IMG/VR virus record: IMGVR_UViG_3300031963_000186
Coordinates: 1-55,561 of that record
Origin: a virus
Lineage: Duplodnaviria > Caudoviricetes
Direction: 5' to 3' (one strand)
Length of the DNA stretch: 55,561 nt
Under the pieces are notes generated by a model. The model was not told the origin of the DNA, ran no database searches, and saw only the letters and a list, made by a program, of their open reading frames with translations. The position numbers and the translations under genes were made by a program. This document shows, piece by piece, positions 22,890-38,807 of this stretch (position 1 is the first letter of the stretch; the number at the start of each line of letters is the position of its first letter).

Positions 22890-24382
22890 AAGTCAAAGTA
22901 CCTTCCTGTCCGTGGCATGACAATGTGCAGATTCTGTTTGGCCCGGGTTGCTGCCACGTAAAACACCCTGGACTCGTCATCTTGATTTTCCTGATAACTC
23001 GTGTGAGTCTTTGGACTGATGTCGGTCAATAGCAAGACATTGTCCGCTTCCCCACCCTTACTGCCATGGATCGTGCTGATGTGGATCCTAGATTCGCCAG
23101 ACAAGGATTCCCCTTGCCTAAGAGCCGCTAGGAAGTACTCCTTCTCCTCGTCGCTGATCTTGTCCAAGGCCTGATGCCAGATGGCCCTGGTCTTCAGTCC
23201 GTACTTCTGGACTAGCGTCTCAAGGCTCACGACGTCTTCGGTCAGTTGTTTCAGTTCCTTGTAACCGTGTTCGATCATCCGCTTACTCATGTGACTGTAG
23301 ATGATCTTGGCCATGTCAGCCGTGACCGTCTCGCCTTTACGAAGTCGTTCCCAAGCCCTGATGGCAAACAATGCCTCAGACTTACGAGGAGATACCCCCT
23401 GGCATTCGTAGGAGTAGCCCTCACGATGACATAGGTCAATCAATTCTCTTAGCATGTAGACATTCCTAGCAAGCAAGAGCCATGAACCACTACCCATGTC
23501 GATGTGATCGATGTCATTGTGGTAGTTGATGGTGCCTTGATGGGCTGCCGGATTGAATTGCTTCTCACGCCGCTTACTGACCCGGCTAATGATGCCGCCA
23601 GAAAACTGGTGAACGACTGCCGGGATCCGGTACGACTGGTCAAGGATCCTGACCTTGGCATCAAGTCCAATGAAGTGATCGACGTCAGCCCCTGCCCACC
23701 TGAAGATGGCTTGGTCATCATCACCTGCAATGTAGACTTGCTCGGCGTGCTGCATCATCCGTTCTACCACCTTCCACTGCAGTTGGCTTAAGTCTTGCGC
23801 CTCATCAACTAGCAACGCCTTAAGCTTCGGACAAAAGCCAGAAGTCCGCATCTGGTCTAACATGTCAGTGTAGTCGATCAAGCCCATCTCATTCTTGTAT
23901 TCCATCAGGCTCCTTGCAAAGTGGTCTAGCTCATACCAGCCCACGTCGTCCTCAGAGGCCTCCTCCCACTGTTGCTTCAGGGGTATGCAACGAATCCTAG
24001 CTAACCCTTCGAGGAACTTCAGCTTGTCACCCTTTGCCATGCCTGTCATGGTGCCATCTTCCGCGCTGACCTTACCTGTCATCTCAACGCCGATTAAGTC
24101 TGCCAACTCCTGATAGTGGCTTGACTGCATCACCTGCTGCCGACTAAGTCCCAACTGCCTAAAAGCCAGGCTATGAATTGTCCTGAAGAACGGCATGTCA
24201 TCGATGGAAAAGCCAAACCGTTTCCTTGCCTTGTCACGAGCCTCTGCAGTTGCCTTCTTTGTGAAGCTGATGAAGCCGATCTGATCTGGCTTGACTCCCT
24301 TCTCTAACAAGGACTCCACAATGTTCATCAGCGTTGTCGTCTTGCCTGTACCTGGAGGGCCTAAGATTAATTCAGGCTTCAT
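22886..24382 (-). CDS. UvrD/Rep-like SF1 helicase
   Basis: GPPGTGKT, TIHS, VDEAQD, GDDDQAIF, STIHGSKGGE, YVAATRAK. Confidence 0.92.
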   Translation of the reverse strand: MKPELILGPPGTGKTTTLMNIVESLLEKGVKPDQIGFISFTKKATAEARDKARKRFGFSIDDMPFFRTIHSLAFRQLGLSRQQVMQSSHYQELADLIGVEMTGKVSAEDGTMTGMAKGDKLKFLEGLARIRCIPLKQQWEEASEDDVGWYELDHFARSLMEYKNEMGLIDYTDMLDQMRTSGFCPKLKALLVDEAQDLSQLQWKVVERMMQHAEQVYIAGDDDQAIFRWAGADVDHFIGLDAKVRILDQSYRIPAVVHQFSGGIISRVSKRREKQFNPAAHQGTINYHNDIDHIDMGSGSWLLLARNVYMLRELIDLCHREGYSYECQGVSPRKSEALFAIRAWERLRKGETVTADMAKIIYSHMSKRMIEHGYKELKQLTEDVVSLETLVQKYGLKTRAIWHQALDKISDEEKEYFLAALRQGESLSGESRIHISTIHGSKGGEADNVLLLTDISPKTHTSYQENQDDESRVFYVAATRAKQNLHIVMPRTGRYFDL

Positions 24383-25902
24383 ATCAAGCTGCCCCCACCA
24401 AAGTCAGGAGTCTGATGACCCTTGTCTTGGAAGGCGAATGCCGGGATTGACCACACCGTGGCCCGCTTACCATTCAGGCGGTATGTATGCGTCTCTCCAC
24501 CGTAGTCTCTGATGGCACTACTGATCTGGTTCAGCTTGAACTCCTTGAACTTCTGCTTGTCAAGGAAGTTCATGAAGTCTGCCAACCTAAACAGATGGCG
24601 GTTCTCATCCTGGTCATGGAATGGTTTACCTAGCAAGATCTCGTCAAGATGCTTGGCTTGTGCCTTACCAGTACAGAACCGCTCTAGCAGCTCAATGAAC
24701 TGACCCTTCGGTGTCGAGTCTTCAGGTGCCTCGATGATGACTACGTCTTGCAGCAAGGCCTGAATCATCTGACTCCACTGTGTCAGGTTCATCTTCTGTG
24801 GCATGTAGTTCATGGTCTCCATGCATCTCTTCTGGAAGCCCGATTGATTTTGCAGGTCTTCGGTAGACAAGGAAAGCCGCATGCCATTGTCCATGTCAAG
24901 AAACCAGATGGGAGGATCCGTGTTGTACTTGCTAAGACTTGAAAGCCTTGGAGCCCCTTGCTGGATACCGACCCCGTACTTTCTCATGCGGCACATACCA
25001 GCGTTGCAGTGCTGGCGGATTGGAGGCCTACTGCACGTGTACTGATAGTCACTGGTCTGCATAGAGTTCATGACCCCCATCACCTCAGACTCTGGCAGCG
25101 GCGGATCCATGACGTCGATGTTCATCTGCATGACCAAGGGCTGCCAATCGTCTGGCCGCATCTTCTTTGCAAGGACACATAGATTGAACAAGCCGTTGTT
25201 GCGGGTACCTTCTGGAAAGCCGGTCTGCGACAGCTTCTCAAGGCATGGGGGAGCATCCTTAAATTGCTTACGTCTAGTCTTTGATTCATTAAACTTCAGC
25301 TTAATGAACTGAGCCCTTGTCATCTTCAAGGGTTCTGCAAAATCTAAAAACTGCTCGGGAGTCATTGGAGCCCCTGACTCGGCAACGCCATACCGGCTTG
25401 TGGACGTGCCTTCAAAGTACGGCATGTTGATCCAGTTACCAACATCTCCTCGTTCTGTCAAGACGGTGTCTTGCTTCGGGAAGATCTCACTGGTTGCATG
25501 CCCCAAGACCGATGCCAACTCGGCTAGCTTACGCTTGACGTCGGCAGCTGGCACGGGTTCTGAGAAGAACATATAGATGTGGGCACCGCCCGACTTGCTG
25601 CGGCAGACGACTACCGGAGCCTTGGCTTTCTTACAGGCTTCAACGGCTTCTTTCAAGTCGTAGTTCTTGTATTCGTCAATGTCAATCGCACCAAAGAGGC
25701 ATGTGTTGTCCTCCCTGATGGGCACAATACCGATTCCCTTGGCTCCTGAGAGATGAGATTCCCACAGTTCCTCGGTGACAGGGGCACGTTTGGTGACGGC
25801 TGTTCCCTGAACCTTTAGACCGGTATTCTTGCCATCAATGTCATAAGTACCATAGGCTCCAGAGTGCCCAGCAAACAAGGCCATGAATCGTTGTGCAAGC
25901 AT
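24379..25902 (-). CDS. Primase (AEP-type with PriCT-like domain)
   Basis: GAIDID, RSKSGGAH, EIFPKQ, GNWINMPY, GTRNNGLF; start taken as ATG 25902. Confidence 0.75.
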   Translation of the reverse strand: MLAQRFMALFAGHSGAYGTYDIDGKNTGLKVQGTAVTKRAPVTEELWESHLSGAKGIGIVPIREDNTCLFGAIDIDEYKNYDLKEAVEACKKAKAPVVVCRSKSGGAHIYMFFSEPVPAADVKRKLAELASVLGHATSEIFPKQDTVLTERGDVGNWINMPYFEGTSTSRYGVAESGAPMTPEQFLDFAEPLKMTRAQFIKLKFNESKTRRKQFKDAPPCLEKLSQTGFPEGTRNNGLFNLCVLAKKMRPDDWQPLVMQMNIDVMDPPLPESEVMGVMNSMQTSDYQYTCSRPPIRQHCNAGMCRMRKYGVGIQQGAPRLSSLSKYNTDPPIWFLDMDNGMRLSLSTEDLQNQSGFQKRCMETMNYMPQKMNLTQWSQMIQALLQDVVIIEAPEDSTPKGQFIELLERFCTGKAQAKHLDEILLGKPFHDQDENRHLFRLADFMNFLDKQKFKEFKLNQISSAIRDYGGETHTYRLNGKRATVWSIPAFAFQDKGHQTPDFGGGSLI

Positions 25903-25921
25903 AGCTTTCTTTCTTGTAGTA

Positions 25922-25946
25922 GAAAACCGGGGGCCGGAACCCCCGG
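25922..25946 (-). terminator. Possible terminator/attenuator hairpin ahead of the primase gene
   Basis: Minus strand CCGGGGG-TTCCGG-CCCCCGG followed by TTTTC. Confidence 0.45.
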
Positions 25947-25952
25947 AGGTCG

Positions 25953-26183
25953 TCAACTGCCTCTTGTGGCTGCCTTCAAAGGTTTATTTGTGACGTTATC
26001 AGTCTGAGACTGACCTACCTTTGTGGCAACCTTCTTCACGTACCGCTTAGGACCCTTGCGTTTGATCTTCTTGTGTCCATGAGCAGCCTTCCTCCCAGGG
26101 CCTTTTTTAGTGGCACTGGGACTCTTGCCGTCTGAAGTAGAAGCGCCAGCTCCTAATGTAGGAAACAATTGCCTGATGTCCAT
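25953..26183 (-). CDS. Small Lys-rich protein
   Basis: 76 aa, strongly basic; fills the gap between SSB-like and primase genes. Confidence 0.5.
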   Translation of the reverse strand: MDIRQLFPTLGAGASTSDGKSPSATKKGPGRKAAHGHKKIKRKGPKRYVKKVATKVGQSQTDNVTNKPLKAATRGS

Positions 26184-26191
26184 ACTGTTTC

Positions 26192-26962
26192 CTAGTAGGG
26201 TACTTCAGCAGAGTCTGATGCAACACCATCAACCGGTGGCTCCGAGACCTTGACTAGACCAGCGGAGACATCTTGGCCAAACTTCTTAGCCGTCTCGTAC
26301 AGACCCTTGTCGTTGATCATCGTCGGATCGTTAATGATCCAGCCAAACCAGCTGTTTGTGTCCTTTGTCTCCATGCCTGTGCCCACATGGTAGCTATGGC
26401 TAAACGGCGGAGGCGTAAACGACTTGTCGCCAATCTTGACTTGCAGACTCATCATCTGGCCCAACCAGCGACGGCTCTTCTTCAGTTGGGTTGAGCTCAT
26501 GGCCATGACAGCCCGCTCATAACCGCCTTCGGTCAAGACAAGCACGTAGTGATACGACGTCGTGACGATCAGGTTGCCGTTAGAAAGAACGTCTTGATTG
26601 CGTTCGTTCTTCTTAGTCTTCTCAAGGATCTTCTCGTCCATGTGTTCCTTGACGAGGCCGCCACCGGCTTCCCGAGGAGTCCACTCAACGTAGCTCTTCT
26701 TGAAGGCACAAGGAATGACACGGAACTCCTTCATCAGCTGCTGCGTCACGGTGTTGATAATCAGGCCTTCCTCAGCGCCCGGTACCTTAGTGGTGCCACG
26801 GAGTTCAGGGGACAGCGCCTGAAGGATCTTCAGGTACGGAATGGCGACGTCATTTGCCGTGACGTTTTCAAAGCCCATACCTGCGTCAGCCATCATGTCG
26901 TCTGCGAAGGCAACTACTGGCAGGTCAGACTGTTTCACAGCCACCTCATTTTTCTTGCTCAT
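26192..26962 (-). CDS. Putative single-stranded DNA-binding/annealing protein
   Basis: IPYLKILQALSP, MSSTQLKKSRRW; acidic tail ending in an aromatic residue (SDSAEVPY); replication context. Confidence 0.55.
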   Translation of the reverse strand: MSKKNEVAVKQSDLPVVAFADDMMADAGMGFENVTANDVAIPYLKILQALSPELRGTTKVPGAEEGLIINTVTQQLMKEFRVIPCAFKKSYVEWTPREAGGGLVKEHMDEKILEKTKKNERNQDVLSNGNLIVTTSYHYVLVLTEGGYERAVMAMSSTQLKKSRRWLGQMMSLQVKIGDKSFTPPPFSHSYHVGTGMETKDTNSWFGWIINDPTMINDKGLYETAKKFGQDVSAGLVKVSEPPVDGVASDSAEVPY

Positions 26963-27525
26963 GCTTTGCTCCTTTTAACTTTAGCGATTTGGCCGATGTA
27001 CACGTTGAAAAGCTCTAGTGGAAATTCGGCACCACTCTCCACTTGCTCCCTGACAAATGCTGTCAAAGTCTGCGGATGCACTCCCATCTTGCCAGAATAA
27101 TCAATGCCCTGCTGTTCTAGCTTGGCCTTAAACTGTTCGGCTTTCTGGTGTTCACCGCGGTTAAATGTGATCGACACCTCGTCTTTTATCAGCGCTACAT
27201 GACCGTGGTCTTCCAACCACCCAAAGCACTCTTCTCGCTTGTCATCACCTATCTTAGCTGAGTAATACGGCTTGACCGTAATTTCACTGCCATCGGTCAA
27301 CGTAAACTTAGCCATTCCAACTTCGGCCATTGCATCTGGCAGTTGCTTTTCTGCAATGTCTCTAAGTTGCTCCTTTAAGATCTTCAGTCGCGTTTCCGCT
27401 TCCTTAATCTCCTCTTCCTTCTCAATCAAGGCTTCGGCTAAACGACTGATCTTTTTAAGACCGTCATTGCTTAGCGTTGATTGACTGTCGGCCAACATGT
27501 CTTCAAGCATTTGCTCTGACTCCAT
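26959..27525 (-). CDS. Replication-module protein
   Basis: N-terminal coiled coil, WLEDHGH..LIK, VHPQTLTAFVRE. Confidence 0.6.
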   Translation of the reverse strand: MESEQMLEDMLADSQSTLSNDGLKKISRLAEALIEKEEEIKEAETRLKILKEQLRDIAEKQLPDAMAEVGMAKFTLTDGSEITVKPYYSAKIGDDKREECFGWLEDHGHVALIKDEVSITFNRGEHQKAEQFKAKLEQQGIDYSGKMGVHPQTLTAFVREQVESGAEFPLELFNVYIGQIAKVKRSKA

Positions 27526-27823
27526 TCAAATCCGCCTCAATGGCGTAGTAACGATGCTCTTGGCGATCCCACTTAAGCATCTTGATCTTGCCGCCGTTAA
27601 AATTGGCAGCAACCGCTACGGACAATCCGATGGCTATTGGATCTCCAATAGCTAACAGAAAATCGCTGTCCGAAAATGAGCGTAGCTTGTCACGCAACGC
27701 CCGAATTGTTGGAGCCGTGGACAGGGTTACCTGGCCAGGCGGTAATAGAGTCCTCAAGTCACCGTACTCAGCAGCAGGCAAGATGTTGAACTTAGGACTT
27801 TCCTGAACGACATAGACAGTCAT
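27503..27823 (-). CDS. Hypothetical protein
   Basis: Start moved to ATG 27823 (ATGA overlap, GGAGG RBS); DFLLAIGDP..LKWDRQ. Confidence 0.6.
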   Translation of the reverse strand: MTVYVVQESPKFNILPAAEYGDLRTLLPPGQVTLSTAPTIRALRDKLRSFSDSDFLLAIGDPIAIGLSVAVAANFNGGKIKMLKWDRQEHRYYAIEADLNGVRANA

Positions 27824-28221
27824 TGCACCTCCCCACGATAAATAACTTGCAACTCTGTACAAAACGGTGGCACTGTAAAGATCAGTTGGTTCATGCTGTT
27901 CCACTCAAAAGGCTTCGTGCATTGCCAGATCTCAAACATCTCCATGTTACGTTGGACCTGATACAGCTTCAACACGTTGTCGTTCCTTGCCAACACAAAG
28001 ACACGGCCACCGTTTTCTTGGCGCCTCCGATGCCACAAGGTTTGTTCAGGCCTCAATTCACAACGGCCCTTGTCATCAAGCACCTTCAGCTCAAGCCAGT
28101 ACTCATTAGACTCAAAGCAGCCGTTGACATCAGGGGTTCCTCGTGTCAAGGCGTTCTCAACACGTTCGACATCTCCAAGCAGCTTGTCCTTGACGAGCGC
28201 CCAAAACTGACTCTCTTTCAT
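27820..28221 (-). CDS. PD-(D/E)xK nuclease (VRR-NUC/resolvase-like)
   Basis: RVE..GTPD..WLELK..LRPEQTLW..GGRVFVL; start ATG 28221. Confidence 0.75.
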   Translation of the reverse strand: MKESQFWALVKDKLLGDVERVENALTRGTPDVNGCFESNEYWLELKVLDDKGRCELRPEQTLWHRRRQENGGRVFVLARNDNVLKLYQVQRNMEMFEIWQCTKPFEWNSMNQLIFTVPPFCTELQVIYRGEVQ

Positions 28222-30080
28222 AGTTGCACCTCGACGGCTGTCCCCCAGTTGGCTCCAAGTTCGCAGTCTACTTTCAATGGCACTTCTAAGTCCACGCATG
28301 TCAACATCTCCTGCCGTATCATCCTTGCATGATCAAGGTCCCTAATGCTGAAATCCAATTCATCATGGATGGTCAGATGAGGAACTTCTCCCTTTTTATA
28401 TAAGTTCACCATGGCCCGCTTGATCATGTCTGCTGATGACCCTTGGATCACGGCATTCATGGCCTTATGAACAAAGTACCGCTTCAATGGCAAGCCATAC
28501 TTATCTTCAGCCTGATCTTTCTTTAGCGGTATCAAACCGGCACTGTACTTAGGGGGTCCAAATAACTGGAACCTCCTCCGCCTCCCCAATAACGTCTTGA
28601 CGTAGCCGCGGTTTGTAGCAATTCGCATACACTCCTCACCTAACGCCTTGATGAAGGGCACGTTCTCATGGTACTGCTCGTAGACCTTCTTTGCTTCGGC
28701 AGGTGCCAGTCCAAGTTGGCTTGCTGCCTTAGCTGCCCCCATACCGTAGGCAAGGCCAAGATTTAACGTCTTAGCGTTCTTACGACTGATACCTGCCATG
28801 TCAGCTACCAACTGATGGTAGTCGGTATCTGGGTTGTCGATATACCTGCTTCTTGCAGTATCTGCCCCAGGAAACCCTCGTAGATACGCGTAGTGCACCG
28901 TGACCCGAGGTTCTTGCTGCGAGTAGTCAAAGACACCCCACTGATGGCCATCTTCAGGGATGAAGATTGACCGAATCATTGGAGCCAAGACCGGGTCTCT
29001 AGCAGGGACTTGCTGCATGTTTGGGTTTGCTGACGCAAAACGGCCTGACTTAGTACCCCCACGGTCCCCACGGACTTGCCGCCATTCCGGGTAAATCCGC
29101 CCACCACTTTCCATCTGAATGATCTTGCTGTCGATAAATACTCCACCGGCCCGGTCAAGCTTCCTGGCCTTCGAAATTAAGGAGAAAAATTCATGATCAG
29201 CACTTTCAAGAAACTCAGCCGCAAAACTTGCATTCCCCTTTTCAGTCTTTGGGTAATCCAGCTTCAAAGCATCACAGGCTGCTTGTATATCATCACCAGA
29301 CCAGATGTCTATGGTCCTGTCTGCAACCTTCTTCAGCTTATCCATCAGCTGCTCTTGCTCGTCAAGTAGTTGAGCCTTGATCCTGTGGGCAAGGTCGACA
29401 TCGACCCTCACGCCCTTCTGGCGCATGGCAACTAAGACATCGATGATCTCGCTTTCTAGCATGAACAGGTCCCATAGCTTCTCGTCGTGAAGCAAGACCT
29501 CTTGCTGGGCGAAGATCCGGATCGGCAGATCTGCATCCTTACGGCCGTAAGTTGCAACTTCGCCGGCATGCAGTCGCCAAAGACTTCCCTTGATGTCTGA
29601 TGGCTTGATGCCACGACGGACACCAGCCTCGATCATCTGACTCTCGTCTTTGTGTTCACCAAGATACGACTCGGCTAAGGCGTCTAACTTATAGGTCACA
29701 CGATCTTCATCAAGCAACGGCTCAGCAACCTGAATGTCGTACTTAGGCCCATTTAAGACGACTCCTTCTGTCAGCAGCCATTCCATGTCGTATGGCATGT
29801 TGGCCCCTAGTTTTGGGATGTCGGTCTTCATCTGGTCTTTTAGCCATGCAAAGACATTCTCAGGATTCAAGTTACCGCCGGCCTCATGGCGCACCGGGTA
29901 ATACTCAGCAAAGCCATCGTCAGTGGCCACGGAAACGCCAACGATGTAACCGTCTTTGCGAACACCGCCAGGACCCTTTGTCATCAGGTTGGGATCCCTA
30001 GTCTCGCAATCGACGGCGATCCTCTTGGCCCGACTAAGATCTGGAAAATGTTGCGGGGGCTTGTAGGAGTTCTCGTCCAT
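28218..30080 (-). CDS. polA: Family A DNA polymerase with 3'-5' exonuclease domain
   Basis: Exo VDCET, NMPYD, YGRKD; TKSGRFAS..PNMQQVP, DYSQQEPR (motif A), RKNAKTLNLGLAYG (B), TIHDEL (C). Confidence 0.95.
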   Translation of the reverse strand: MDENSYKPPQHFPDLSRAKRIAVDCETRDPNLMTKGPGGVRKDGYIVGVSVATDDGFAEYYPVRHEAGGNLNPENVFAWLKDQMKTDIPKLGANMPYDMEWLLTEGVVLNGPKYDIQVAEPLLDEDRVTYKLDALAESYLGEHKDESQMIEAGVRRGIKPSDIKGSLWRLHAGEVATYGRKDADLPIRIFAQQEVLLHDEKLWDLFMLESEIIDVLVAMRQKGVRVDVDLAHRIKAQLLDEQEQLMDKLKKVADRTIDIWSGDDIQAACDALKLDYPKTEKGNASFAAEFLESADHEFFSLISKARKLDRAGGVFIDSKIIQMESGGRIYPEWRQVRGDRGGTKSGRFASANPNMQQVPARDPVLAPMIRSIFIPEDGHQWGVFDYSQQEPRVTVHYAYLRGFPGADTARSRYIDNPDTDYHQLVADMAGISRKNAKTLNLGLAYGMGAAKAASQLGLAPAEAKKVYEQYHENVPFIKALGEECMRIATNRGYVKTLLGRRRRFQLFGPPKYSAGLIPLKKDQAEDKYGLPLKRYFVHKAMNAVIQGSSADMIKRAMVNLYKKGEVPHLTIHDELDFSIRDLDHARMIRQEMLTCVDLEVPLKVDCELGANWGTAVEVQL

Positions 30081-30474
30081 TTCGTATCCAAAGATCTTTA
30101 GCTTCAGCATGCGGATAGTCTTCAATGTAGATGATCCGCTTGCAGCTAGTGTTAAGTAAGAGTTTTATGCACGTCATGCAAGGCATGGCAGTTACATAGG
30201 CGGTTTCGATTTCGAAGACGTTTCGACATTGGAGTAAGGCATTCTGTTCTGCATGTACCGCTTCGCATCTCTCGAGTCCAGTGCCTGACGGATAAGATGC
30301 GCCGGGGCAAGGAGAATCGATGCAATGATCACTGCCGCTAGGAGTGCCGTTATAGCCAGTAGCGAGCACATGCCCACGACTAGATACAAGTACGCAGCCA
30401 ACAGACCGCCTCGCGCACGTAGCCCGTCGACTGACGAGTTGACCCATTTTCGTAAAATATTCATCTTTGCTCAT
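30034..30474 (-). CDS. dCMP deaminase family protein
   Basis: TCARRSVG, TGYNG, HAEQNAL, PCMTC; start at 30474 gives an ATGA overlap (30483 is an alternative). Confidence 0.9.
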   Translation of the reverse strand: MSKDEYFTKMGQLVSRRATCARRSVGCVLVSSRGHVLATGYNGTPSGSDHCIDSPCPGASYPSGTGLERCEAVHAEQNALLQCRNVFEIETAYVTAMPCMTCIKLLLNTSCKRIIYIEDYPHAEAKDLWIRNGRELLQAPATFSRS

Positions 30475-31271
30475 CCTTTCCATGTTTGCAGCTCCTCTAA
30501 GAAGCCTGTTACCTGCTTGTCGTTTGCCACTGCCCATAGATGCAACACAAGATCGTCATAGCCCACAAACTGATCAAGGTCCACTGGCTTGACGTTTCCT
30601 AAGATCTCGCCTTCAGTACAGTGATAGGCTTGCTCAAAATTTTGCTCGTACAAGTGTTGGCTGGCTGCATAAAAATGTAAGAGTCCGGGCCTCACATTGA
30701 TGCCCTTGTCTCTTAGCAACAGGCACACGCCGTAGGACAACATGCTGAAATTAAACCAGTCGTACGGAACACCTAACCAGGCATCAGAAGATCTCATGTT
30801 CATGAAGCAATACAGCAAGTCATTGCGAATCATGAACTGGCAGCTTATTGTGCAAGGTATATCTTTTGATTGGCGTGGGTTAGGGCGCCAGATAGTGATG
30901 ACTGCTTGACGTGAGTCTCTATCGTCGCATAACGCCTTGACCACATGGCCCAGTTGATCACGTATCGGGGGTCCATAAGCCCCAAAGAATAAGATGCCGT
31001 CATCACTGAAGTTGCTGATGGCCTTGCTGTAAGGCGAGATCGTATTGACACGGTTATCTCCTGACATGATCCAAGCTGCCTCTGCTGCCATGAACCTATA
31101 GCCTAACTTTCGTTCCTTGATGGTGATGACAGGCTGAGTCATGTCAATCAAAGATTTGATGCCAAGCAGTTCCTTTGTCTTCTTACCCCTTGGGCTTGAC
31201 TCCACGCCGACATTCATGACCATGTCGAGCAAGCTGATCCATGCTAGGTTAGTTGAGTTTGAGCGCTGCAT
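30471..31271 (-). CDS. Thymidylate-synthase-family enzyme, probably dCMP-specific (hydroxy)methylase
   Basis: SRQAV, DIPC (catalytic Cys), MRSSDAWLGVPYD, SQHLY; start ATG 31271 with AAGGAG. Confidence 0.85.
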   Translation of the reverse strand: MQRSNSTNLAWISLLDMVMNVGVESSPRGKKTKELLGIKSLIDMTQPVITIKERKLGYRFMAAEAAWIMSGDNRVNTISPYSKAISNFSDDGILFFGAYGPPIRDQLGHVVKALCDDRDSRQAVITIWRPNPRQSKDIPCTISCQFMIRNDLLYCFMNMRSSDAWLGVPYDWFNFSMLSYGVCLLLRDKGINVRPGLLHFYAASQHLYEQNFEQAYHCTEGEILGNVKPVDLDQFVGYDDLVLHLWAVANDKQVTGFLEELQTWKG

Positions 31272-32259
31272 TGACGGCTCCTTTGAGTTGGGATTGAAAC
31301 TCATCTCGCTTGTTAAACCTCTTTGCATACGACGGATGCATGATCGTCTGGTGCTTCACAAGGCAATAATGAGTCAATGTCTTGCAAGCAGCTTCACCTA
31401 AAGCAATGACCTTTAAGAACGGTTGAGCACGTAATGAATCATTGATGTACAACCCACCAGAAGGACTATTGGCATTGACATAGATGGCTTGTTGTTCATC
31501 AAACAGCATCTCATGTAAACAAGACGCAAAGAACTCGCTACTGTTGCCGAAGTCATACCAAGGCCAATTGATAGCACGAAGCTTGCTGTTCGTCTGGTCA
31601 CCGACAAAGATGATCTTGGCCTCAGCAAGATAGCCTGCAAAGTTTTCATGCTTCATTGACAAGGCTTCTGGCAGTTGACGCATCTGGCGCTGGGCAAGGA
31701 CAGAAGCTGCCATGTCGCAAAACAAATTCATGTCACGACCTTCTACGTCATAGCGATAAGCCAAGACGTCGTTTCTGTACTTCATGCCATGAACAGAGAG
31801 TTGCTGGGCATAGTCACGATCGTGGCCCTCGTAGCCACCTTGAAACAGCTGATCAAATTTTTGCCTGACCTGCTTGACGTTGTCATACATCTCATTGCGA
31901 CTCTTTTTTAATTCCTCAAACTTCTCGTCATGACCTTCTGGCGATTGCGTGATGATGTACAAACCACAAAAACGGCGAATGATACGGTCCATGGTCCGTC
32001 CCATGTGAGGCCAAGGGCTACCGCCACGGTACACGTCGGCGTAGATAGCCTCACTCATCCACAAACGATCGACGACTACAAGCCTTTCACGAGATAGCTT
32101 AAGTGCCCGGTGAAGTGATGCCGTGTGGTACAAGGGCATCTTCTTAGGCCAGCGATACGTGTTGTGCATGTAGATGCCATCAAAACGGTTGCAGATGGCT
32201 TCAGCAAGAGTCGTCTTGCCAGTCCCATCACAGCCATCAATGACGATCAAACCTTTCAT
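31249..32259 (-). CDS. dNMP (thymidylate-like) kinase fused to a C-terminal UDG-like domain
   Basis: DGCDGTGKTT P-loop, VDR..SE..Y; C-terminal IIFVGD, VIALG, HPSY. Confidence 0.7.
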   Translation of the reverse strand: MKGLIVIDGCDGTGKTTLAEAICNRFDGIYMHNTYRWPKKMPLYHTASLHRALKLSRERLVVVDRLWMSEAIYADVYRGGSPWPHMGRTMDRIIRRFCGLYIITQSPEGHDEKFEELKKSRNEMYDNVKQVRQKFDQLFQGGYEGHDRDYAQQLSVHGMKYRNDVLAYRYDVEGRDMNLFCDMAASVLAQRQMRQLPEALSMKHENFAGYLAEAKIIFVGDQTNSKLRAINWPWYDFGNSSEFFASCLHEMLFDEQQAIYVNANSPSGGLYINDSLRAQPFLKVIALGEAACKTLTHYCLVKHQTIMHPSYAKRFNKRDEFQSQLKGAVNAALKLN

Positions 32260-32651
32260 GCTTTCTCCTTTCTGACCAGGTCTGCAAGCTCAGGAGCAGT
32301 CCAACCTGGAGGCTTCACTATATCATAGGTCGATCCGCGTTTGCTATCCATGGCAGATAAAGCGCGAACTTTTTTCATGTTGGCTTCATGTACCCTGCGA
32401 AAGCCTTCGTCAAACGGCAAGCCAGAAAGATAGGCAGCTCCCAAAGCCACGTAGACTAGATCGATCAAGCCGTCAAAGTATTCCTCTAGGTCCCCGTTGA
32501 TGGCTGATGCCCTGATCTCGTCTAGCTCTTCTTGCATGTGCCGATTCTTGAGTTGCCAGATCTCATCAACCGGAAAACTAGGCTTTTCGGTAGGAGCCAG
32601 TTCGAACTTTTGATGAAACTCGGCCACCATGTTGAACAGGTCGTTTCTCAT
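32256..32651 (-). CDS. All-alpha NTP pyrophosphohydrolase (MazG/PRA-PH-like)
   Basis: EELDE..DGLIDLVYV..VHEANMKK..KPPGW; start ATG 32651. Confidence 0.85.
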   Translation of the reverse strand: MRNDLFNMVAEFHQKFELAPTEKPSFPVDEIWQLKNRHMQEELDEIRASAINGDLEEYFDGLIDLVYVALGAAYLSGLPFDEGFRRVHEANMKKVRALSAMDSKRGSTYDIVKPPGWTAPELADLVRKEKA

Positions 32652-33508
32652 CAGGCTTCTCCGAGGTAGTCGAACAAGGGCTGCCACTGGTCACTGCTGG
32701 AAAGTGGCTGGCTGCAGTCACTAAGTCTTTGAGCCTCGAACATCTGGTTTGTCCTGGGCAACTTGACTCGCCACAGCACGTTGCGAGCGCGGTGTGGATA
32801 GAGGGGGGCAAAGATAGTCGCCAAGTAATTGCTGTCGTAGTAATCACGTAGGCGATTGAACACTGCGTCCAAATCATCTCTTTCAATCATCTCCTTGTAA
32901 TCTTTGATGCTGGCAAAAGTGCCATAGTGGGCGTCAACTTCAAGACCTGCCTTGTGCAGCAAGACTTGCATGACCTGGTAAGTCATCTCATTGACGTGGT
33001 TGTCTGCAGCCCCTACCTTGGGGTCATAGACCGGAGTGCTGATAAAGGCCATGCCATCTTCAGCCAAGCGGTCACGGATCCCCTCGATCATCTTGTAGGC
33101 GTGCAGCGGCTCGACGTGTTCTAACACCTCAAAGCACGTGATGACGTCAAACTTCTCAATGGGCAGTTCGACATCGGGAAAGGCAACATTGCCAATTAAG
33201 GTAGGCTTGAACTTCGTGTTCTCAAAGGCCTTAGGCATCTCTAGCTTGTTGTAGTCGATGCCGATATAGACTAACCCATCAGATGCCATGCGGCTAGTCA
33301 TCAGCATCTTGGCCAGTGGTACGTCCTTGCCGCAACCGATGTCAAGTAGCTTGCAGTCTCGGCGGTTATCTGGTTTTCCCATCCACTTAGCTACGTGGGT
33401 CCACCGAAGGCAGTGGGCAATGTAGTCTCGGTGGATGAAGCCGCGTTCTTCGGCTTGATCAATACTCAGGTGAGTGTTGTCAATATGTTTACCTCTGGCA
33501 TTTGCCAT
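32651..33508 (-). CDS. Class I SAM-dependent methyltransferase (small-molecule type)
   Basis: LLDIGCG, FDVITCFEVLEHV, FISTP; start moved to ATG 33508 with AGGAG. Confidence 0.85.
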   Translation of the reverse strand: MANARGKHIDNTHLSIDQAEERGFIHRDYIAHCLRWTHVAKWMGKPDNRRDCKLLDIGCGKDVPLAKMLMTSRMASDGLVYIGIDYNKLEMPKAFENTKFKPTLIGNVAFPDVELPIEKFDVITCFEVLEHVEPLHAYKMIEGIRDRLAEDGMAFISTPVYDPKVGAADNHVNEMTYQVMQVLLHKAGLEVDAHYGTFASIKDYKEMIERDDLDAVFNRLRDYYDSNYLATIFAPLYPHRARNVLWRVKLPRTNQMFEAQRLSDCSQPLSSSDQWQPLFDYLGEA

Positions 33509-33534
33509 AGTCTTCTCCTGTCTACAAAGGGAAT

Positions 33535-33554
33535 GAAGAAGCCCCCGGAGGGGC
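33535..33554 (-). terminator. Possible terminator after DUF932 gene
   Basis: Minus strand GCCCC-TCCG-GGGGC followed by TTCTTC. Confidence 0.35.
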
Positions 33555-33564
33555 CCCTCCAGAA

Positions 33565-34551
33565 TTACGCAGCTTCGGCGAACTCGACAGCTAGGTCGAG
33601 GGCTTGACGCTTGCGAGTGGCAGCAGAACCAAACCAAGCAGACGTGAGCCGCTTGTCTTGATCTGTACCTGCGACGTGATCGTAGTAGTACGTCACGGCA
33701 TTGAAGGCACCCCACCAAGTACCTTGGGATGTCTTGAGGTCGGCACCAGGTTGGGTGGCAACTAAGTCAAACAGGCGATTGACCGTACGGCCAAGATCTG
33801 CACGGCTGACGGTACCGTCTTCGCTCAAGTCTTGAGCTGCCTTGTACAGGTCAGGATTGACTAGTTTGCTGAAGAACTCCAAGACTTGCTGATCCTTGGC
33901 GCGCTTTTTGGCCAAGAATTCTGCCTTGTCCTTGAAGACGTCAAGGGCCTTCATAGCAAGACCCACTTTTTCTGCAGCTTGCTGCTTGATCTCGTCGTCA
34001 AAGGCGCGATCATGCGACATTCTGAAGGTGTTCTCTTGGTTCGTGTTATTCCGAAGGGCTGCGGTCAGGGTATTGTTGCAGACTACTCGGATTGGCGTGA
34101 ACAAGATCTGCAGACTACGGCCCCAGATGTGCGGGTTGTCTAGCAAGATGTAACCTTCGACTTCGTCCTTGCCGCCCAGCATAAAGCCGCCGTTGATCTT
34201 GGCCAGACCCCAGACACGCTTGCCACCTGAAAGTGAGCCAGCAGTCTCCATCTTCATGTCACCGGCCTTGCAGAACTTGTCAAAGAAGTCAAAGACTTCC
34301 GCGTTTTGCGTAGGCTGATAGTCTTGGCCGCAGATACCAAGGACCTTGTCGTCCAAATCCCGGACCAGAGCGAAGTGACTGCCTACTGGATTCTCATGGC
34401 CATCAATCCACAAAGCCTTTCGGTCGACTTTCCAATCCAGGCCAGCTGCCCCTAACATCTCGGCAGGCGTCAAGTTATCAGAAACCTGGACACCCAGACC
34501 ATGCCAAGGCACTTCATTGGCGTACGCCATTGTCTCAACATTGTGCGACAT
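33565..34551 (-). CDS. DUF932 / phage-plasmid LGT-family protein
   Basis: PWHGLG, AGLDWKV, ETAGSL.GGKRVW, TPIRVVCNNTL, GTWWGAFNAVT; start ATG 34551. Confidence 0.85.
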   Translation of the reverse strand: MSHNVETMAYANEVPWHGLGVQVSDNLTPAEMLGAAGLDWKVDRKALWIDGHENPVGSHFALVRDLDDKVLGICGQDYQPTQNAEVFDFFDKFCKAGDMKMETAGSLSGGKRVWGLAKINGGFMLGGKDEVEGYILLDNPHIWGRSLQILFTPIRVVCNNTLTAALRNNTNQENTFRMSHDRAFDDEIKQQAAEKVGLAMKALDVFKDKAEFLAKKRAKDQQVLEFFSKLVNPDLYKAAQDLSEDGTVSRADLGRTVNRLFDLVATQPGADLKTSQGTWWGAFNAVTYYYDHVAGTDQDKRLTSAWFGSAATRKRQALDLAVEFAEAA

Positions 34552-34658
34552 AACTTTCTCCTTTCTGAACCGCACCAGTCGTGCGTGGGCCAATTATAGG
34601 CCAAAATCACGTACCGCGCGACTTATTACTAAAAATTTTTAGCTGGGACTTTTACTAG
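34549..34658 (-). promoter_or_regulatory. Conserved leader/promoter, copy 2
   Basis: TATAAT (minus strand, 34593-34598), 28-bp block 34631-34658, 18-bp RBS/start block 34549-34566. Confidence 0.6.
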
Positions 34659-34729: not shown

Positions 34730-34890
34730 AAAAAAGCTATAGAGTAATTCTAGAGCCATAACTGGTTGGATCAGTGTGTGCAATTAACTTTTCTTCTATC
34801 GTTCGCTCGTCTCTAGACTGCGCGTGCTCAAAAAAGGCTGTCTTAATACACTCTGTTTTGGCTCTAGAAATCTCTTATAGGGATTTTGGC
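34730..34890. repeat. Non-coding inverted-repeat element, copy B
   Basis: 24-bp identity TTAATACACTCTGTTTTGGCTCTA (34843-34866 = 16858-16881); arms TCTAGAGCCATAAC / GTTTTGGCTCTAGA. Confidence 0.85.
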
Positions 34891-37800
34891 TAATTTTGAG
34901 CCAATCCCCCGCGCTTCTTAAGCTTTGTTACCGACTTAACATCTTCTGGCCGCAATTCCCTGGCCTGAGTGATGATTGGTTCCTCACTGGCCTTGGTCAT
35001 GACAGAGTGGCCATACTTTCCACGGCCAAACGGATCGACCATCAACATCTCGATGTGAGGGTCGGATTGCATTTGCTGGGCACGACGGTTAGCGTAGACT
35101 TCGGCAGCCCTTCTTTGCGGGCTGGCATAAATCAGACCAGACGCCTCAGACGCCTTGGCTGTGTCGTAGTCTCCGGCGTAACCCCGGTAGACGCCCTGCA
35201 GCATTTTTTGCTCTTGGGCTCCCCTGAGGGCCTCAGAGAACTTTTCAGCAGCTTTCCTAACCATCCCTACTTTCCCACCATCCTGAAAGCCCTGGGGACC
35301 TCCTAGGGGTTCCTGGGATGGTTCAGGGGCAATGGATCCCTTAGGCACAGAGAAGTACCTATTTCCTCGCTTGATGATCTCCGCACCGCGTTCTTTTTCG
35401 GCCTCTTCTGCCAGGTTCCAGGTCTCATGTTGCCGACCTTTTAACAGCATGTAGCTGTCCTCTGGCAAGCCGTACTTCTGGCGGTCTTCTGGCCTTGTCT
35501 GGGTTACGGATCCCCAATGGCCTTGGTTCTCACCAGACTCCTCAGGGGCCATGCCAGCAGACTTTGCGGTCTCGTAGTCGTAGTCAGATCCTTCTGGGTC
35601 AAAGGCCGGTTGTTCCGTTTGTGCAACTCCCAGTCCTACGACAGGGGCCGCGGCAAAGAGCCGTTGGCCTTCTGCCTGGATCCGCTCTCTCATCTTTGGG
35701 GTCACGTCAACCGTGAAGGCGCGCAGTGTCTTGCCTTCTTGTTTCTTCAAACGTCCTTCGGCAGCTTCTCGTAGACCTATTTCATTGATGCGGTCTACCG
35801 TAGAAAAAGGCAAATTGTTGTACGTATCGTTGTACATGCTGTCATAGTTTGGATCGGCATCAGTGATGCCTCTCCTTGACAAGACGTTCTCAACTTCCTC
35901 ATTCATGTGGTAGCCTATTGTCCGACTGACATCTTCGTCGTCAAGACTTAGGGTATCGATCATGTCCTCTATCTCTTGCCAGGTTGGAGCCCCTTGTCTT
36001 CCTCCGGTCATGACGATGTCTTCATACCCGGTCTTAGCGTCAAACTCCTTACCGGCGTAGCTTCTCACGAAGTCGGGAACCCGCTTGTCATAGAACGACT
36101 TCATGCCTTCACCACCAACGGCTAAGTCTTCGCCAGTGATGGTTCTCATCTGACCAGAAGGGGTTTCAGGCCCTAACGTTTGGGTACTAAGCCATTGATT
36201 ATAGGAATTTGTCAATTCGTCTATTTTTTCAACGTCATCCGAATTTACATTTTTTTCCCAGTCTTTAATAAACTGGTTTAACCAAGAACGTTGCTCTCTT
36301 GTCATCTGATCACCGTGAGTGGCCAAAAGCTCGTCAGCTGACATCCCAGGCATGGGTATAGCTTGGGCACTAGAAATATTTTCAGAAGGTTCTTCAATTT
36401 GCTTTGCGATGTTTGACCCAAAGACTTCCGATACTGTCTTGCCTTTGGCAGGACCCGTAGTAAAGATGCCTTCAGCAGCTTCTCCCATAAATACGGTGTT
36501 ACCATCTTTTAAGGCAGAGACGATTATTCTTCCGTCGTTATAAGGATTGACCTTGATCTCATCAATGGCCTTACGCATCTCATTGCTGTACCGCTTGATT
36601 TGTTCAATGCCTGGGCTAAAGGCAACCTTGTCATAGCCTTCTTTGGCAGCTATGTCAAAGATCTCCTTAACGGCCAGCTCATGCCAGGTATCTTTGAAAG
36701 GGGCATCTGGTTTCTTAATATCAAAAGAGTCTATTTTTGCAGCTAAATCAAACATAATTTCACGATGAGGAGACGTAGAGTGCTGCCTTTCCATAGCCCC
36801 ACGAATAGGCTTTCCAGCTACAGGATCAAAAGAAATCACGTTGACGGACCAATCGTACTTTGAAGCTTCAAGGGCCTTGTTCCTAGCGTACTGCTTAGCC
36901 GTTTCTTCGTCAACATTGCCGATGCTCAAGGCCCTCTCTAAAGCCCTGTCGTATTCCCGTTGATATGCAGGCGAGTTTTCTCCGGTGTTAAATGACAAGA
37001 CTTTTTCATATCCCATGTCACTCTTGACTACCGATCCGGGCTTGTAGTGTTCCGCAATCTCGTCTATGGTCAATCCATCTCTACGAATACGACTTAACTC
37101 TTCTTTAAGACCCGATAGAATTTTTTCATCTCCAGGTTTACGATAACCAAAGTCTTTAGGCAGTTCTTTTTCAAGTTCTGCCATACGTTCCCTTGTCAAA
37201 CGATTTTTGATTTTTATAAGTTCACGTTCATTTTCAGGAGTAACATCAAGTTTTCCAGAAGCTCTAAGTTGTTCTATTGTCTTCTGATGTATAGCATCCC
37301 GCTCTTTATTGATGACGGTCTGAATATACTTTTTACGAGCATCCCGGGCCTTTTGATGCCAGTCAGATTGGATCTCGTCGACATATAAGACTTTCTCGTC
37401 ATTAGGGCCAACACGGTCACTGATCCTGAAGTGCGTCAAGATATTAGGCGTGTCGTAATGTCCGGCTACAAATTCTTCTGCAGGAACCATCAAGTCATCC
37501 ATTAAGGTCATGGCCTCGAATCTAGACTCAGGATCTAGCTCATACACGTTCTTGCCGCCTAATAACTCTGCTAAACGGTTTCGCTTTGTGCTAAGGCCTG
37601 CAGATGCAGATTCAGGCAAGTGAACCATGACTTCCCTGTAGTTCTCACCACCTGGTTGGCTCCATTGTTTGTACTTGGTCTCGTACTTATCAAGATCTAT
37701 TTGGAAACGTTTGTTGGCAGCCCTAAAAGCTACCATCAAGTCTTGATAATCTTGAGGAGACCTAACATCAATATCTTCTGGTCCCATCCTTAAGATGGTC

Positions 37801-38807
37801 TCAGGATCAATGACGTCACCCGTTCTTTCATCAAAAAACCCCATGTTCGTCCTGTCTTCAGGATTGACAATGGGTTCAATTTCATATTTCTGCAAGATGT
37901 TTTTATTTTTATCGGTCAGCTTAAACTCATAGTCCTCAGGAACCCCGGCTCCCAAGATGGTCCGTTGGGGAATGGGGGCCTTGTTACGCTGAGCAGCTTG
38001 CCGTAGCTCTTCCTGAGTGATCTTAGGTGCAGTCTGCAGCTTTTGACGGATACCACGGGTCTCAAGTTCTTCTTTCTTGACACCGGGAGTCGTCTCAAGT
38101 TGCTTAAGGATCTGTTCGCCGGTACCCTTCTTTTGTTTCAGGGTCTCGATGGCCTTGTCAATGGCTGAAAAGAATCGGCCGACCTTGCCACCCTTTTCAT
38201 ACTTCTGAATCAGGCCACCCAGTTCTTTCTTTACTGGGTCCTCAAGGGCTTCGCCAATGACGCCGATGGTCCCACCAAAACCGGTTCCAATCCCGTAATT
38301 GATGGCCTTAGGATCCACAATAGGAGACAGGTATTCCACAGGAGCCGCTGCTACCTTACCTGCTACGCCTGCCTTCTTGACGGTACCAAGGGCCTTGTTT
38401 AATAAGGCTCCTGGCACAGGTATCTGGCCTAACATCTCGCCACCGGCATAAGCAAAGTGTTGAAGAGCCCCTCTAGGCTCGTCAATTCCCATCTGCTTAC
38501 GCACGCCCTCCTTGATTCGCCCTGCTTGCTTATCAGCCTCAACAGAGAATTCGGGGGCGTACTTTTCATCTACCAAACCAAGCAGCGATGGGATGGCAGC
38601 CGTGTTGTAGTAGATGCCAGGGGTTCCTTTGCCAACCCCAACTTCACCCTTCTCATTGATGCCGGCCCACTGGCTTCTGAAGCCAGCAATGGCCTGGTCT
38701 AAGGCAGAAGATGCTTTTTTCTTTTCTTCCTTTAAGGAAGCCGTCAGGTTCTTGATCTTCTCGGCCTTACCGCCATCCTCATATTTGCGCTTGAGATCAT
38801 CCATCAC
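34890..38807 (-). CDS. Large multidomain internal virion/ejection protein (1305 aa)
   Basis: Last gene of the virion operon; GGENYRE..YVDEIQSDWHQ core; C-terminal YRG..IYASP...AEVYA segment; xxxGG motifs at junctions. Confidence 0.7.
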   Translation of the reverse strand: MMDDLKRKYEDGGKAEKIKNLTASLKEEKKKASSALDQAIAGFRSQWAGINEKGEVGVGKGTPGIYYNTAAIPSLLGLVDEKYAPEFSVEADKQAGRIKEGVRKQMGIDEPRGALQHFAYAGGEMLGQIPVPGALLNKALGTVKKAGVAGKVAAAPVEYLSPIVDPKAINYGIGTGFGGTIGVIGEALEDPVKKELGGLIQKYEKGGKVGRFFSAIDKAIETLKQKKGTGEQILKQLETTPGVKKEELETRGIRQKLQTAPKITQEELRQAAQRNKAPIPQRTILGAGVPEDYEFKLTDKNKNILQKYEIEPIVNPEDRTNMGFFDERTGDVIDPETILRMGPEDIDVRSPQDYQDLMVAFRAANKRFQIDLDKYETKYKQWSQPGGENYREVMVHLPESASAGLSTKRNRLAELLGGKNVYELDPESRFEAMTLMDDLMVPAEEFVAGHYDTPNILTHFRISDRVGPNDEKVLYVDEIQSDWHQKARDARKKYIQTVINKERDAIHQKTIEQLRASGKLDVTPENERELIKIKNRLTRERMAELEKELPKDFGYRKPGDEKILSGLKEELSRIRRDGLTIDEIAEHYKPGSVVKSDMGYEKVLSFNTGENSPAYQREYDRALERALSIGNVDEETAKQYARNKALEASKYDWSVNVISFDPVAGKPIRGAMERQHSTSPHREIMFDLAAKIDSFDIKKPDAPFKDTWHELAVKEIFDIAAKEGYDKVAFSPGIEQIKRYSNEMRKAIDEIKVNPYNDGRIIVSALKDGNTVFMGEAAEGIFTTGPAKGKTVSEVFGSNIAKQIEEPSENISSAQAIPMPGMSADELLATHGDQMTREQRSWLNQFIKDWEKNVNSDDVEKIDELTNSYNQWLSTQTLGPETPSGQMRTITGEDLAVGGEGMKSFYDKRVPDFVRSYAGKEFDAKTGYEDIVMTGGRQGAPTWQEIEDMIDTLSLDDEDVSRTIGYHMNEEVENVLSRRGITDADPNYDSMYNDTYNNLPFSTVDRINEIGLREAAEGRLKKQEGKTLRAFTVDVTPKMRERIQAEGQRLFAAAPVVGLGVAQTEQPAFDPEGSDYDYETAKSAGMAPEESGENQGHWGSVTQTRPEDRQKYGLPEDSYMLLKGRQHETWNLAEEAEKERGAEIIKRGNRYFSVPKGSIAPEPSQEPLGGPQGFQDGGKVGMVRKAAEKFSEALRGAQEQKMLQGVYRGYAGDYDTAKASEASGLIYASPQRRAAEVYANRRAQQMQSDPHIEMLMVDPFGRGKYGHSVMTKASEEPIITQARELRPEDVKSVTKLKKRGGLAQN

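Follow-up and report, generated by a model that had tools for sequence, protein, structure and literature searches.

Introduction

Replacing bases in their DNA is one of the chief ways in which phages evade restriction and CRISPR, and it supplies epigenome sequencing with enzymes. Here we examine a group of five overlapping genes in a complete 55.5-kb virus genome of the Caudoviricetes (CheckV completeness 100), the IMG/VR record IMGVR_UViG_3300031963_000186, which was analysed over its whole stretch of 55,561 nucleotides and is referred to below as the window. The five open reading frames (ORFs) lie on the minus strand, which carries nearly all genes of the record, and run from position 33508 to 30034 in the order S-adenosylmethionine (SAM) methyltransferase (MTase), MazG-like pyrophosphohydrolase, kinase fusion, thymidylate synthase (TS) homologue and deoxycytidine monophosphate (dCMP) deaminase, followed by the DNA polymerase gene polA. 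An original prediction, made from the sequence alone, had proposed that they form a base-replacement pathway for a modified cytosine, to which the SAM enzyme adds a further methyl group.

The 5-hydroxymethylcytosine (5hmC) pathway of phage T4 comprises the TS homologue gp42 and, alongside it, the dCTPase gp56, the deoxynucleoside monophosphate (dNMP) kinase gp1, the dCMP deaminase Cd and the alpha- and beta-glucosyltransferases. Modified cytosines derived from TS homologues are known to be left without tailoring, as 5-methylcytosine (5mC) or 5hmC, or to be glycosylated or carbamoylated; a methyltransferase strictly coupled to a cytosine-specific TS homologue would add a fourth fate. The window resembles T4 in combining a candidate remover of deoxycytidine triphosphate (dCTP), a TS homologue of the aspartate (Asp) type, a dNMP kinase, a dCMP deaminase and a candidate tailoring enzyme encoded close to the presumed hydroxymethylase; in T4 the b-gt gene adjoins gene 42, and gp42 itself nests among the MTase-linked TS homologues described below. 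It differs in that the dCTPase candidate is a MazG/PRA-PH (phosphoribosyl-ATP pyrophosphohydrolase) protein, the kinase carries a domain with a uracil-DNA glycosylase (UDG) fold, the TS homologue falls in another clade (40 bits against gp42), and a SAM methyltransferase takes the place of a glycosyltransferase as tailoring candidate. The earlier remark that no glycosyltransferase could be recognised holds, as none appeared in Pfam scans of 40 window ORFs and a GT2 search over the whole record was negative; a whole-record profile search for the T4 beta-glucosyltransferase was uninformative, its control being silent.

A second related system comes from the MetaGPA study (Yang et al. 2021, eLife), in which TS, PRA-PH and dCMP deaminase genes co-occur with a carbamoyltransferase on modified-cytosine contigs (PMC8670742; here and below, published studies are cited from their main texts). 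The carbamoyltransferase decorates the hydroxyl of 5hmC to give 5-carbamoyloxymethylcytosine, as was shown on oligonucleotides (PMC8670742). The window shares with this module the Asp-type TS, the PRA-PH protein, the deaminase and the presence of one extra transferase, but the extra enzyme is here a class-I methyltransferase, and a search of the whole record for the carbamoyltransferase family PF02543 gave zero matches whereas control genomes did match. The module would probably work like the T4 and MetaGPA systems, but with another type of dCTPase, a kinase-UDG fusion and tailoring by a methyltransferase.

The TS of phage Xp12 has been shown to make 5-methyl-dCMP (5mdCMP), and in Xp12 as in PaMx74 cytosine is reported to be fully replaced with 5mC (10.1101/2024.12.05.627091). 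As in the window, these phages have an Asp-type TS directly before the deaminase, with a nucleotide hydrolase (or NTP-PPase) ahead. The same preprint, on mSCD, found 104 of 149 deaminases on modified contigs within 3 kb of an Asp-type TS, with PRA-PH and PolA as other common neighbours, and some of these deaminases prefer 5mC nucleotides and can make dTTP from 5mdCTP, bypassing a second TS (10.1101/2024.12.05.627091).

The gene cluster itself is already known, being deposited in GenBank for two phages, Stenotrophomonas phage AXL3 (gp27-gp31) and Pseudoxanthomonas phage PW916 (ORF58-63), both of which have all five genes, arranged as in the window. Identities to the window proteins are 33% for the MTase, 40% for MazG, 24% for the kinase fusion, 44% for the TS homologue and 49% for the deaminase. 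Both are Xanthomonadaceae siphoviruses with 63% GC in which polA is not adjacent, and the authors of both annotated the genes as a thymidylate synthesis pathway, gp27-31 of AXL3 being taken to make thymidine monophosphate (dTMP) although AXL3 also carries ThyX (PMC7504290). Of the 37 restriction enzymes that have sites in AXL3 DNA, 35 failed to cut it, the exceptions being TasI and Tru1I, both with A/T-only sites; its authors inferred a modified G or C without naming the base (PMC7504290). In the main texts on AXL3, PW916, MetaGPA and mSCD the MTase is not linked to DNA modification, and the word 'methyltransferase' is absent from that of MetaGPA (PMC8670742). Our literature search found no functional link of this MTase family to a cytosine-specific TS and no report of 5-methoxymethylcytosine, though supplements might list the domain. 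As AXL3 and PW916 are cultured, the role of the module is directly testable.

Linkage of the methyltransferase to Asp-type thymidylate synthase homologues

The MTase of the window belongs to a viral family whose genes are strictly linked to Asp-type TS homologues. A pattern scan of IMG/VR recovered at least 187 MTase relatives, from which 80 loci were kept; with three annotated loci these made a set of 83, which was searched by tblastn with the window proteins. A TS homologue, identified with a hidden Markov model built from TS homologues, adjoins the MTase in 67 of the 83 loci. The remaining 16 end before the place where it would be expected, with one locus (L032) ambiguous in that it runs 1.25 kb past the kinase before the contig ends. 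Every one of the 67 linked homologues has Asp at the position of residue 177 in Escherichia coli ThyA. The original prediction had suggested looking for co-occurrence of the MTase with Asp-type TS homologues, and the outcome is strongly positive; together with the restriction pattern of AXL3, it gives comparative support to a base-replacement pathway with a modified cytosine.

The wider module is also conserved. A MazG homologue is present in 75 of the 83 loci, and the full order MTase-MazG-kinase-TS-deaminase-PolA recurs in 38, at MTase identities down to 49%, so the arrangement is not due to chance. Other loci are rearranged: one (L048) has the order TS, two small ORFs, MTase, MazG, PolA, and another (L037) has TS-MTase-deaminase, with 13 bases between the TS stop and the MTase start, in T4-like surroundings that include UvsX- and gp41-like genes. 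The pairing of TS and MTase survives such rearrangement and differing phage backgrounds, including that of the siphovirus AXL3. Among 50,697 phage records the MTase matched only five, representing four genomes (AXL3, present twice, PW916, MW202510 and MW202621), all with identical neighbours in identical order.

Two of the loci hold further genes. In L032 (8135-9762) two extra genes stand between MTase and MazG; by eye, with no family search made, one resembles a C5-cytosine DNA methyltransferase and the other a further small class-I methyltransferase. In L037 (1383-5609) the TS-MTase-deaminase group is flanked by sugar-nucleotide genes, namely a cytidylyltransferase-like gene, a UDP-glucose/GDP-mannose dehydrogenase and an NAD-dependent epimerase/dehydratase, which might indicate further glycosylation of DNA or of the surface.

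The thymidylate synthase homologue

The TS homologue (30471-31271, minus strand; longest ORF from 31328) matches PF00303 (E 2.9e-20) and is the sole TS-family gene in the record, where neither a second TS nor ThyX was found. Its catalytic cysteine (Cys146 in ThyA) is invariant in an alignment with ThyA, Xp12, PaMx74 and T4 gp42, and alignments to Brucella TS and to ThyA place an Asp where E. coli ThyA has Asn177. Residue 177 dictates specificity for dUMP or dCMP, and position 147 is the second most discriminating (PMC8670742). The Asp in the window enzyme supports its assignment to the cytosine-specific form of TS.

Position 147 is His in ThyA, Pro in Xp12 and PaMx74, and Thr in T4 gp42, MilA and the window; among 59 linked loci it is Thr in 57 and Ser in two. 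The best solved relative of the window enzyme is the CMP 5-hydroxymethylase MilA (5b6d, E 5.8e-24), compared with E 1e-14 for the best true TS. In a maximum-likelihood tree of 37 sequences, with clade sizes taken from the bit scores of the full set of 67 linked enzymes, the MTase-linked enzymes form three clades: one of 44 loci, to which the window, AXL3 and the Pelagibacter phage HTVC200P belong, one of 16 loci with T4 gp42 nested inside it (support 100/99), and one of seven loci. The enzymes of Xp12 and PaMx74 group with ThyA, outside the window clade (support 96/95). Both of these phages also have a dihydrofolate reductase (DHFR) gene directly after TS-Dcd, as a reductive methylase would need, since it makes dihydrofolate; no DHFR was detected in the window or in the 83 MTase loci by tblastn with two queries, a search of limited sensitivity. 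By residue 147, its nearest solved relative and the lack of a DHFR match, we propose the window enzyme as a candidate dCMP 5-hydroxymethylase.

The closest named relative of the window TS is that of HTVC200P (L085, 4992-5810; 53% identity). In the 10.7 kb fetched of this T7-like pelagiphage, MazG, deaminase and methyltransferase are all missing from the annotation, so the window TS clade also exists without the rest of the module.

The methyltransferase

The first gene of the operon (32651-33508, minus strand) encodes the 285-aa MTase. It is a class-I SAM-dependent enzyme, with a match above cut-off to Pfam Methyltransf_23 (PF13489, E 4.8e-13), an invariant glycine-rich motif and a Rossmann-like fold. 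Its top NCBIfam match is UbiG (E 7e-12), at 45 bits against a UbiG cut-off of 103 bits, and its best PHROG carries the label 'tRNA methyltransferase'. Within a large protein collection, 1635 relatives at E <= 1e-5 were found among 2295 candidates, and the Atlas clusters are 95-100% viral; the family is virus-specific. No other gene of the module is as well conserved among close relatives as the MTase, which shows 75-92% identity, on par with PolA, as against 61-83% for MazG, kinase, TS and deaminase. The family alignment shows many invariant polar residues, an invariant N-terminal segment and C-terminal motifs of its own, and the start MANARGK is common to all 15 aligned homologues.

Comparison of an AF2 model of the MTase (predicted local distance difference test (pLDDT) score 84.9) with known structures, by Foldseek and a second structural aligner, returned class-I small-molecule and RNA methyltransferases with Z scores of 16-18 that are tied within about 2 Z units, among them CmoM (18.4), ChlM (18.1), Trm9 (17.1), HEN1 (16.9) and RebM (16.5). 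As many class-I enzymes score alike, this search gives the fold and not the function. A profile search of the PDB was narrower, matching only seven chains, which are two Rickettsia lysine methyltransferases, three UbiG and two bacterial Hen1 proteins. Apart from a conserved N-terminal helix, the model has no recognisable nucleotide- or DNA-binding addition.

The invariant residues of the family include D56-x-G58-C59-G60, which form the DIGCG SAM motif, E127-x-x-E130-H131 just past strand 4, and H171, which follows strand 5. Plant HEN1 binds Mg/Mn through E796, E799, H800 and H860 (PMC10781085). The residues of the MTase match these in spacing and placement, and UbiG aligns across E-x-x-E-H. 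The MTase shares with UbiG/Coq3 and with HEN1/bacterial Hen1 the DxGCG motif, the E-x-x-E-H helix and a later His, but it differs from them in its identity of less than 20%, its score far below the UbiG cut-off and its own N- and C-terminal motifs. A phmmer search of the PDB with residues 102-200, which sought a Hen1 alignment around H171, gave nothing useful. We propose a putative metal site at E127, E130, H131 and H171, and consider the MTase most likely to be an O-methyltransferase acting as a tailoring enzyme, with putative metal dependence.

The original prediction had noted that the MTase lacks the catalytic motifs of DNA methyltransferases, and this reading stands: motif IV of the amino or C5 type is absent from the sequence and from the family consensus, in which strand 4 is followed by F-E-V-L-E-H. 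The isoelectric point (pI) of the MTase is 5.77, all 15 family members examined being acidic (5.6-7.1), which appears to fit a nucleotide substrate better than DNA. A role as a C5/C6 pyrimidine methylase acting through the invariant Cys33 was also considered and rejected as the main reading, as C5 is already substituted by the TS homologue.

A proposed pathway and its alternatives

Starting from the observed gene content, the coupling of the genes, the Asp-type TS, its strict linkage to the MTase and the restriction resistance of a module carrier, we infer that polA and the five genes before it make up a single early operon which replaces deoxycytidine with a derivative of 5-hydroxymethylcytosine that is O-methylated by the MTase. 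We hold this reading tentatively, at a probability of roughly 0.45. In such a pathway the MazG-like enzyme would hydrolyse dCTP to dCMP, which the Asp-type TS would convert, with methylene-tetrahydrofolate, to 5-hydroxymethyl-dCMP; the Asp supports the cytosine specificity of this step, and hydroxymethylation is its presumed chemistry. The kinase domain would then phosphorylate the modified dCMP, a host NDP kinase would complete the triphosphate, and PolA would incorporate it. The deaminase would drain dCMP and dCTP to dUMP, from which host ThyA (ThyX in AXL3) would make dTMP; the host enzyme is invoked for this branch since the window phage has no ThyA-type TS, ThyX or DHFR.

Finally, the MTase would move the methyl group of SAM to the modified pyrimidine, the likeliest target being the oxygen of the 5-CH2OH group, which would give 5-methoxymethylcytosine. 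That the SAM enzyme may further methylate the modified base is suggested by gene linkage, by its small-molecule and O-methyltransferase character and by its acidic pI. O-methylation of the 5-CH2OH group is favoured because members of the same constrained MTase family partner gp42-type hydroxymethylases, because known tailoring enzymes attack the hydroxyl, and because the nearest sequence relatives of the MTase are O-methyltransferases with a matching ligand pattern. The substrate would more likely be a free nucleotide than DNA, given that the MTase is acidic, has a small-molecule fold and is encoded at the head of a nucleotide-metabolism operon. If true, 5-methoxymethylcytosine would be an undescribed DNA base, probably invisible to host nucleases directed against 5hmC and against cytosine. 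We regard as doubtful the wider proposition that the virus-only Hen1/UbiG-like MTases O-methylate 5-hydroxymethyl-deoxycytidine nucleotides before replication, that many freshwater, marine and soil phages, with AXL3 and PW916 as cultured examples, carry 5-methoxymethylcytosine instead of cytosine, and that the UDG-fold domain polices uracil or unmodified cytosine.

Several points weigh against the proposed pathway. The rule for position 147 stands on two characterised enzymes on each side, the clade formed by the window and 44 loci lies inside neither the gp42 nor the Xp12 clade, and by BLAST the window TS scores 79 bits against the Xp12 enzyme and 40 bits against gp42. Since 5-methyl-dCMP was the product of five of the seven Asp-type TS assayed in cis with deaminases (10.1101/2024.12.05.627091), the hydroxymethylase call for the window clade could be wrong. 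The restriction pattern of AXL3 would equally suit plain 5mC; its authors note a similar resistance panel in phage DLP4 (PMC7504290), which carries an Xp12-type TS. As for the MTase, its substrate is read from gene neighbours, its fold matches are to generic class-I enzymes, E-x-x-E-H is common throughout this methyltransferase clan, and the putative equivalence of H171 to HEN1 H860 is read from placement. The known decorations of 5hmC (glucosyl, carbamoyl) are added after replication, which favours DNA as the substrate.

The strongest rival, not raised in the original prediction and in our view unlikely, is a pathway of the Xp12 type in which the TS is a dCMP methylase, 5mC fully replaces cytosine, and the deaminase turns part of the 5-methyl-dC pool into thymidine nucleotides; the MTase would then methylate elsewhere on the base (e.g. 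N4) or act on another target. The frequent neighbourhood of Asp-type TS, deaminase, PRA-PH and PolA on modified contigs is in line with it, as are the products of the tested enzymes, the BLAST scores and the likeness of AXL3 to DLP4, and a deaminase yielding dTTP from 5mdCTP would explain the lack of a ThyA-type TS or ThyX in the window. The evidence nevertheless weakens this explanation. Xp12 and PaMx74 have Pro147 and DHFR, whereas the window has Thr147 and no DHFR was found; their TS form a clade separate from that of the window, and neither phage is among the five records matched by the MTase. In 16 loci a gp42-type hydroxymethylase is the partner of this MTase family. AXL3 keeps ThyX (PMC7504290), for which there would be no need had its TS and deaminase already supplied dTMP, and the MTase would be left without an obvious target except N4.

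It is also improbable, in our view, that cytosine is replaced by 5hmC or 5mC while the MTase has RNA, protein or a metabolite as its target and accompanies the module merely as another early gene. Such a role would suit its fold and profile neighbours, which include CmoM, Trm9 and HEN1, acting on tRNA or RNA ends, and protein lysine methyltransferases, and it would suit the PHROG label and the lack of a recognisable nucleotide- or DNA-binding addition beyond the N-terminal helix. The linkage, however, is too strict for co-regulation alone, as it holds in all 67 judgeable loci, in three TS clades, in several gene orders and in unrelated phage types; the 13-base spacing to the TS stop in L037 and the translational coupling of the MTase to MazG speak in the same direction.

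A modified thymine, in which 5-hydroxymethyl-dCMP is deaminated to 5-hydroxymethyl-dUMP, possibly O-methylated, and incorporated in place of T, appears very unlikely. The deaminase is always in the module, and seven of 90 such deaminases gave 5-hydroxymethyldeoxyuridine (5hmdU) from 5hmdC in vivo (10.1101/2024.12.05.627091). AXL3 DNA, however, was cut only at A/T-only sites and resisted all 35 enzymes with G or C in their sites, which points to C or G and not to T (PMC7504290). General Pfam scans of the 40 window ORFs, which did not include a search by family accession, turned up neither a 5-hmdU DNA kinase nor an aGPT-Pplase. Several of the 35 resisted sites contain only G and C.

Canonical DNA, with the cluster merely boosting and balancing the supply of dNTPs through dTTP synthesis, is the reading of the AXL3 and PW916 authors (for AXL3, PMC7504290), but it is the least credible, as an Asp-type TS is expected to prefer dCMP (PMC8670742), MazG with a dedicated kinase is a signature of base replacement, and AXL3 DNA is refractory to restriction (PMC7504290).

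The kinase fusion, MazG, deaminase and polymerase

The kinase-UDG fusion (31249-32259, minus strand; 336 aa) is recognised by sequence models through its P-loop only. It was modelled with AlphaFold from 17 homologues (pLDDT 92.2), and the boundary between its two domains was estimated from the secondary structure of the model. The thymidylate-kinase-like domain (about residues 1-199; 31663-32259, minus strand) matches Thymidylate_kin and AAA_28 P-loop models below cut-off and phrog_761, thymidylate kinase, at E 3.8e-10. Foldseek pairs it with the yeast, vaccinia and Staphylococcus aureus thymidylate kinases (E about 5e-4), in agreement with a P-loop NMP-kinase fold. As sequence models match only the P-loop, and below their cut-offs, this is a divergent member of the thymidylate kinases, which we propose phosphorylates modified dCMP.

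The second domain (about residues 200-336; 31249-31662, minus strand) has no Pfam match. In Foldseek it matches the UDG of Thermotoga maritima (1l9g, E 1.1e-4) and UdgX (6iob/8iim), with E values of 1e-4 to 3e-4, and superposes at a root-mean-square deviation of 3.6-3.8 over about 179 columns. Across 17 sequences it conserves Gly220 followed by Asp/Glu, and His308-Pro309 near the C-terminus, which we take to be the places of UDG motifs A and B. Family-4 UDGs have four conserved cysteines that bind a 4Fe-4S cluster; no invariant or near-invariant Cys was found in the domain across the 17 sequences, so it is not a canonical Fe-S family-4 enzyme. It shares with family-4 UDG and UdgX the fold, the acidic residue after a conserved Gly and the conserved His-Pro, but differs in having neither a sequence-family match nor conserved cysteines and in being fused to a dNMP kinase, the fold being a predicted one. 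Possible roles of the domain are the excision of uracil or of unmodified cytosine and the binding of a pyrimidine nucleotide. The kinase of the metagenomic phage MW202510 has 187 aa and no UDG-fold domain, so the domain is an accessory part. For the same reason we set aside the idea that the fusion is a DNA-level kinase of the 5-HMUDK kind, in which the UDG fold would flip bases.

The MazG-like protein (32256-32651, minus strand; longest ORF from GTG 32687) is a match to PF01503 (E 7.2e-14) over positions 1-86 of the 86 in the profile and to phrog_671, nucleotide pyrophosphohydrolase (E 1.1e-25). We propose that it is a dCTPase which removes dCTP and supplies dCMP, the substrate being suggested by its place in the module. 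The dCMP/dCTP deaminase-family enzyme (30034-30474, minus strand; longest ORF from 30537) matches PF00383 (E 3.2e-20) and phrog_174, dCMP deaminase (E 5.1e-37), and its translation shows the HAE and PCxxC zinc motifs. The polA gene (28218-30125, minus strand) encodes a family-A DNA polymerase with a 3'-5' exonuclease domain (PF00476, E 9.2e-58; PF01612, E 9e-7), which would have to incorporate the modified dCTP.

Gene junctions and the surrounding genome

The original prediction had described five consecutive, overlapping genes running into polA, and each of these ORFs was found in place, with families matched by Pfam and PHROG. The junctions within the module are translationally coupled. At the MTase/MazG junction, TGATG, the ATG of MazG overlaps the MTase stop by one base; the MazG/kinase and TS/deaminase junctions are ATGA overlaps. 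The TS start (ATG 31271) lies within the 3' end of the kinase gene, with AGGAG ahead of the ATG, and polA overlaps the end of the deaminase gene. The sole intergenic gap, between a DUF932 gene and the MTase start, holds a terminator-like hairpin with a 12-pair stem (33534-33561, minus strand), and an AGGAG ribosome-binding site stands between it and the MTase ATG. The hairpin possibly marks the operon boundary, though it is weak evidence, since the region has seven terminator-like sites against a shuffled expectation of 6.8.

Megablast of positions 28218-34593 against the 50,697 phage records gave no match, and the locus has no close deposited relative among them at the DNA level. Near-identical copies of the module (30034-33508) turn up in sequencing runs of 18 coded studies (2017-2025), the run labels being freshwater, lake water and 'fungus metagenome'; 11 of these runs may be the source sample.

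Directly upstream of the DUF932 gene, two ORFs of 1305 and 1109 aa (34890-42133, minus strand) have zero Pfam matches. Just downstream of polA and a VRR-NUC/resolvase-like ORF, three successive genes (26192-27904, minus strand) resemble the gp34-, gp33- and gp32-like families of Pam3, which are of unknown function. The replication block (20821-25956, minus strand) includes an SNF2-family helicase, a UvrD-type helicase and a primase similar to the AEP domain of TOTE conflict systems (PF22548, E 3.6e-22). Further away, surrounded by unannotated and probably structural or late genes, a 373-aa ORF (46247-47368, minus strand) carries both beta-ketoacyl synthase domains (PF02801, E 1.6e-16; PF00109, E 5.5e-8), which is unusual in a 55-kb phage.

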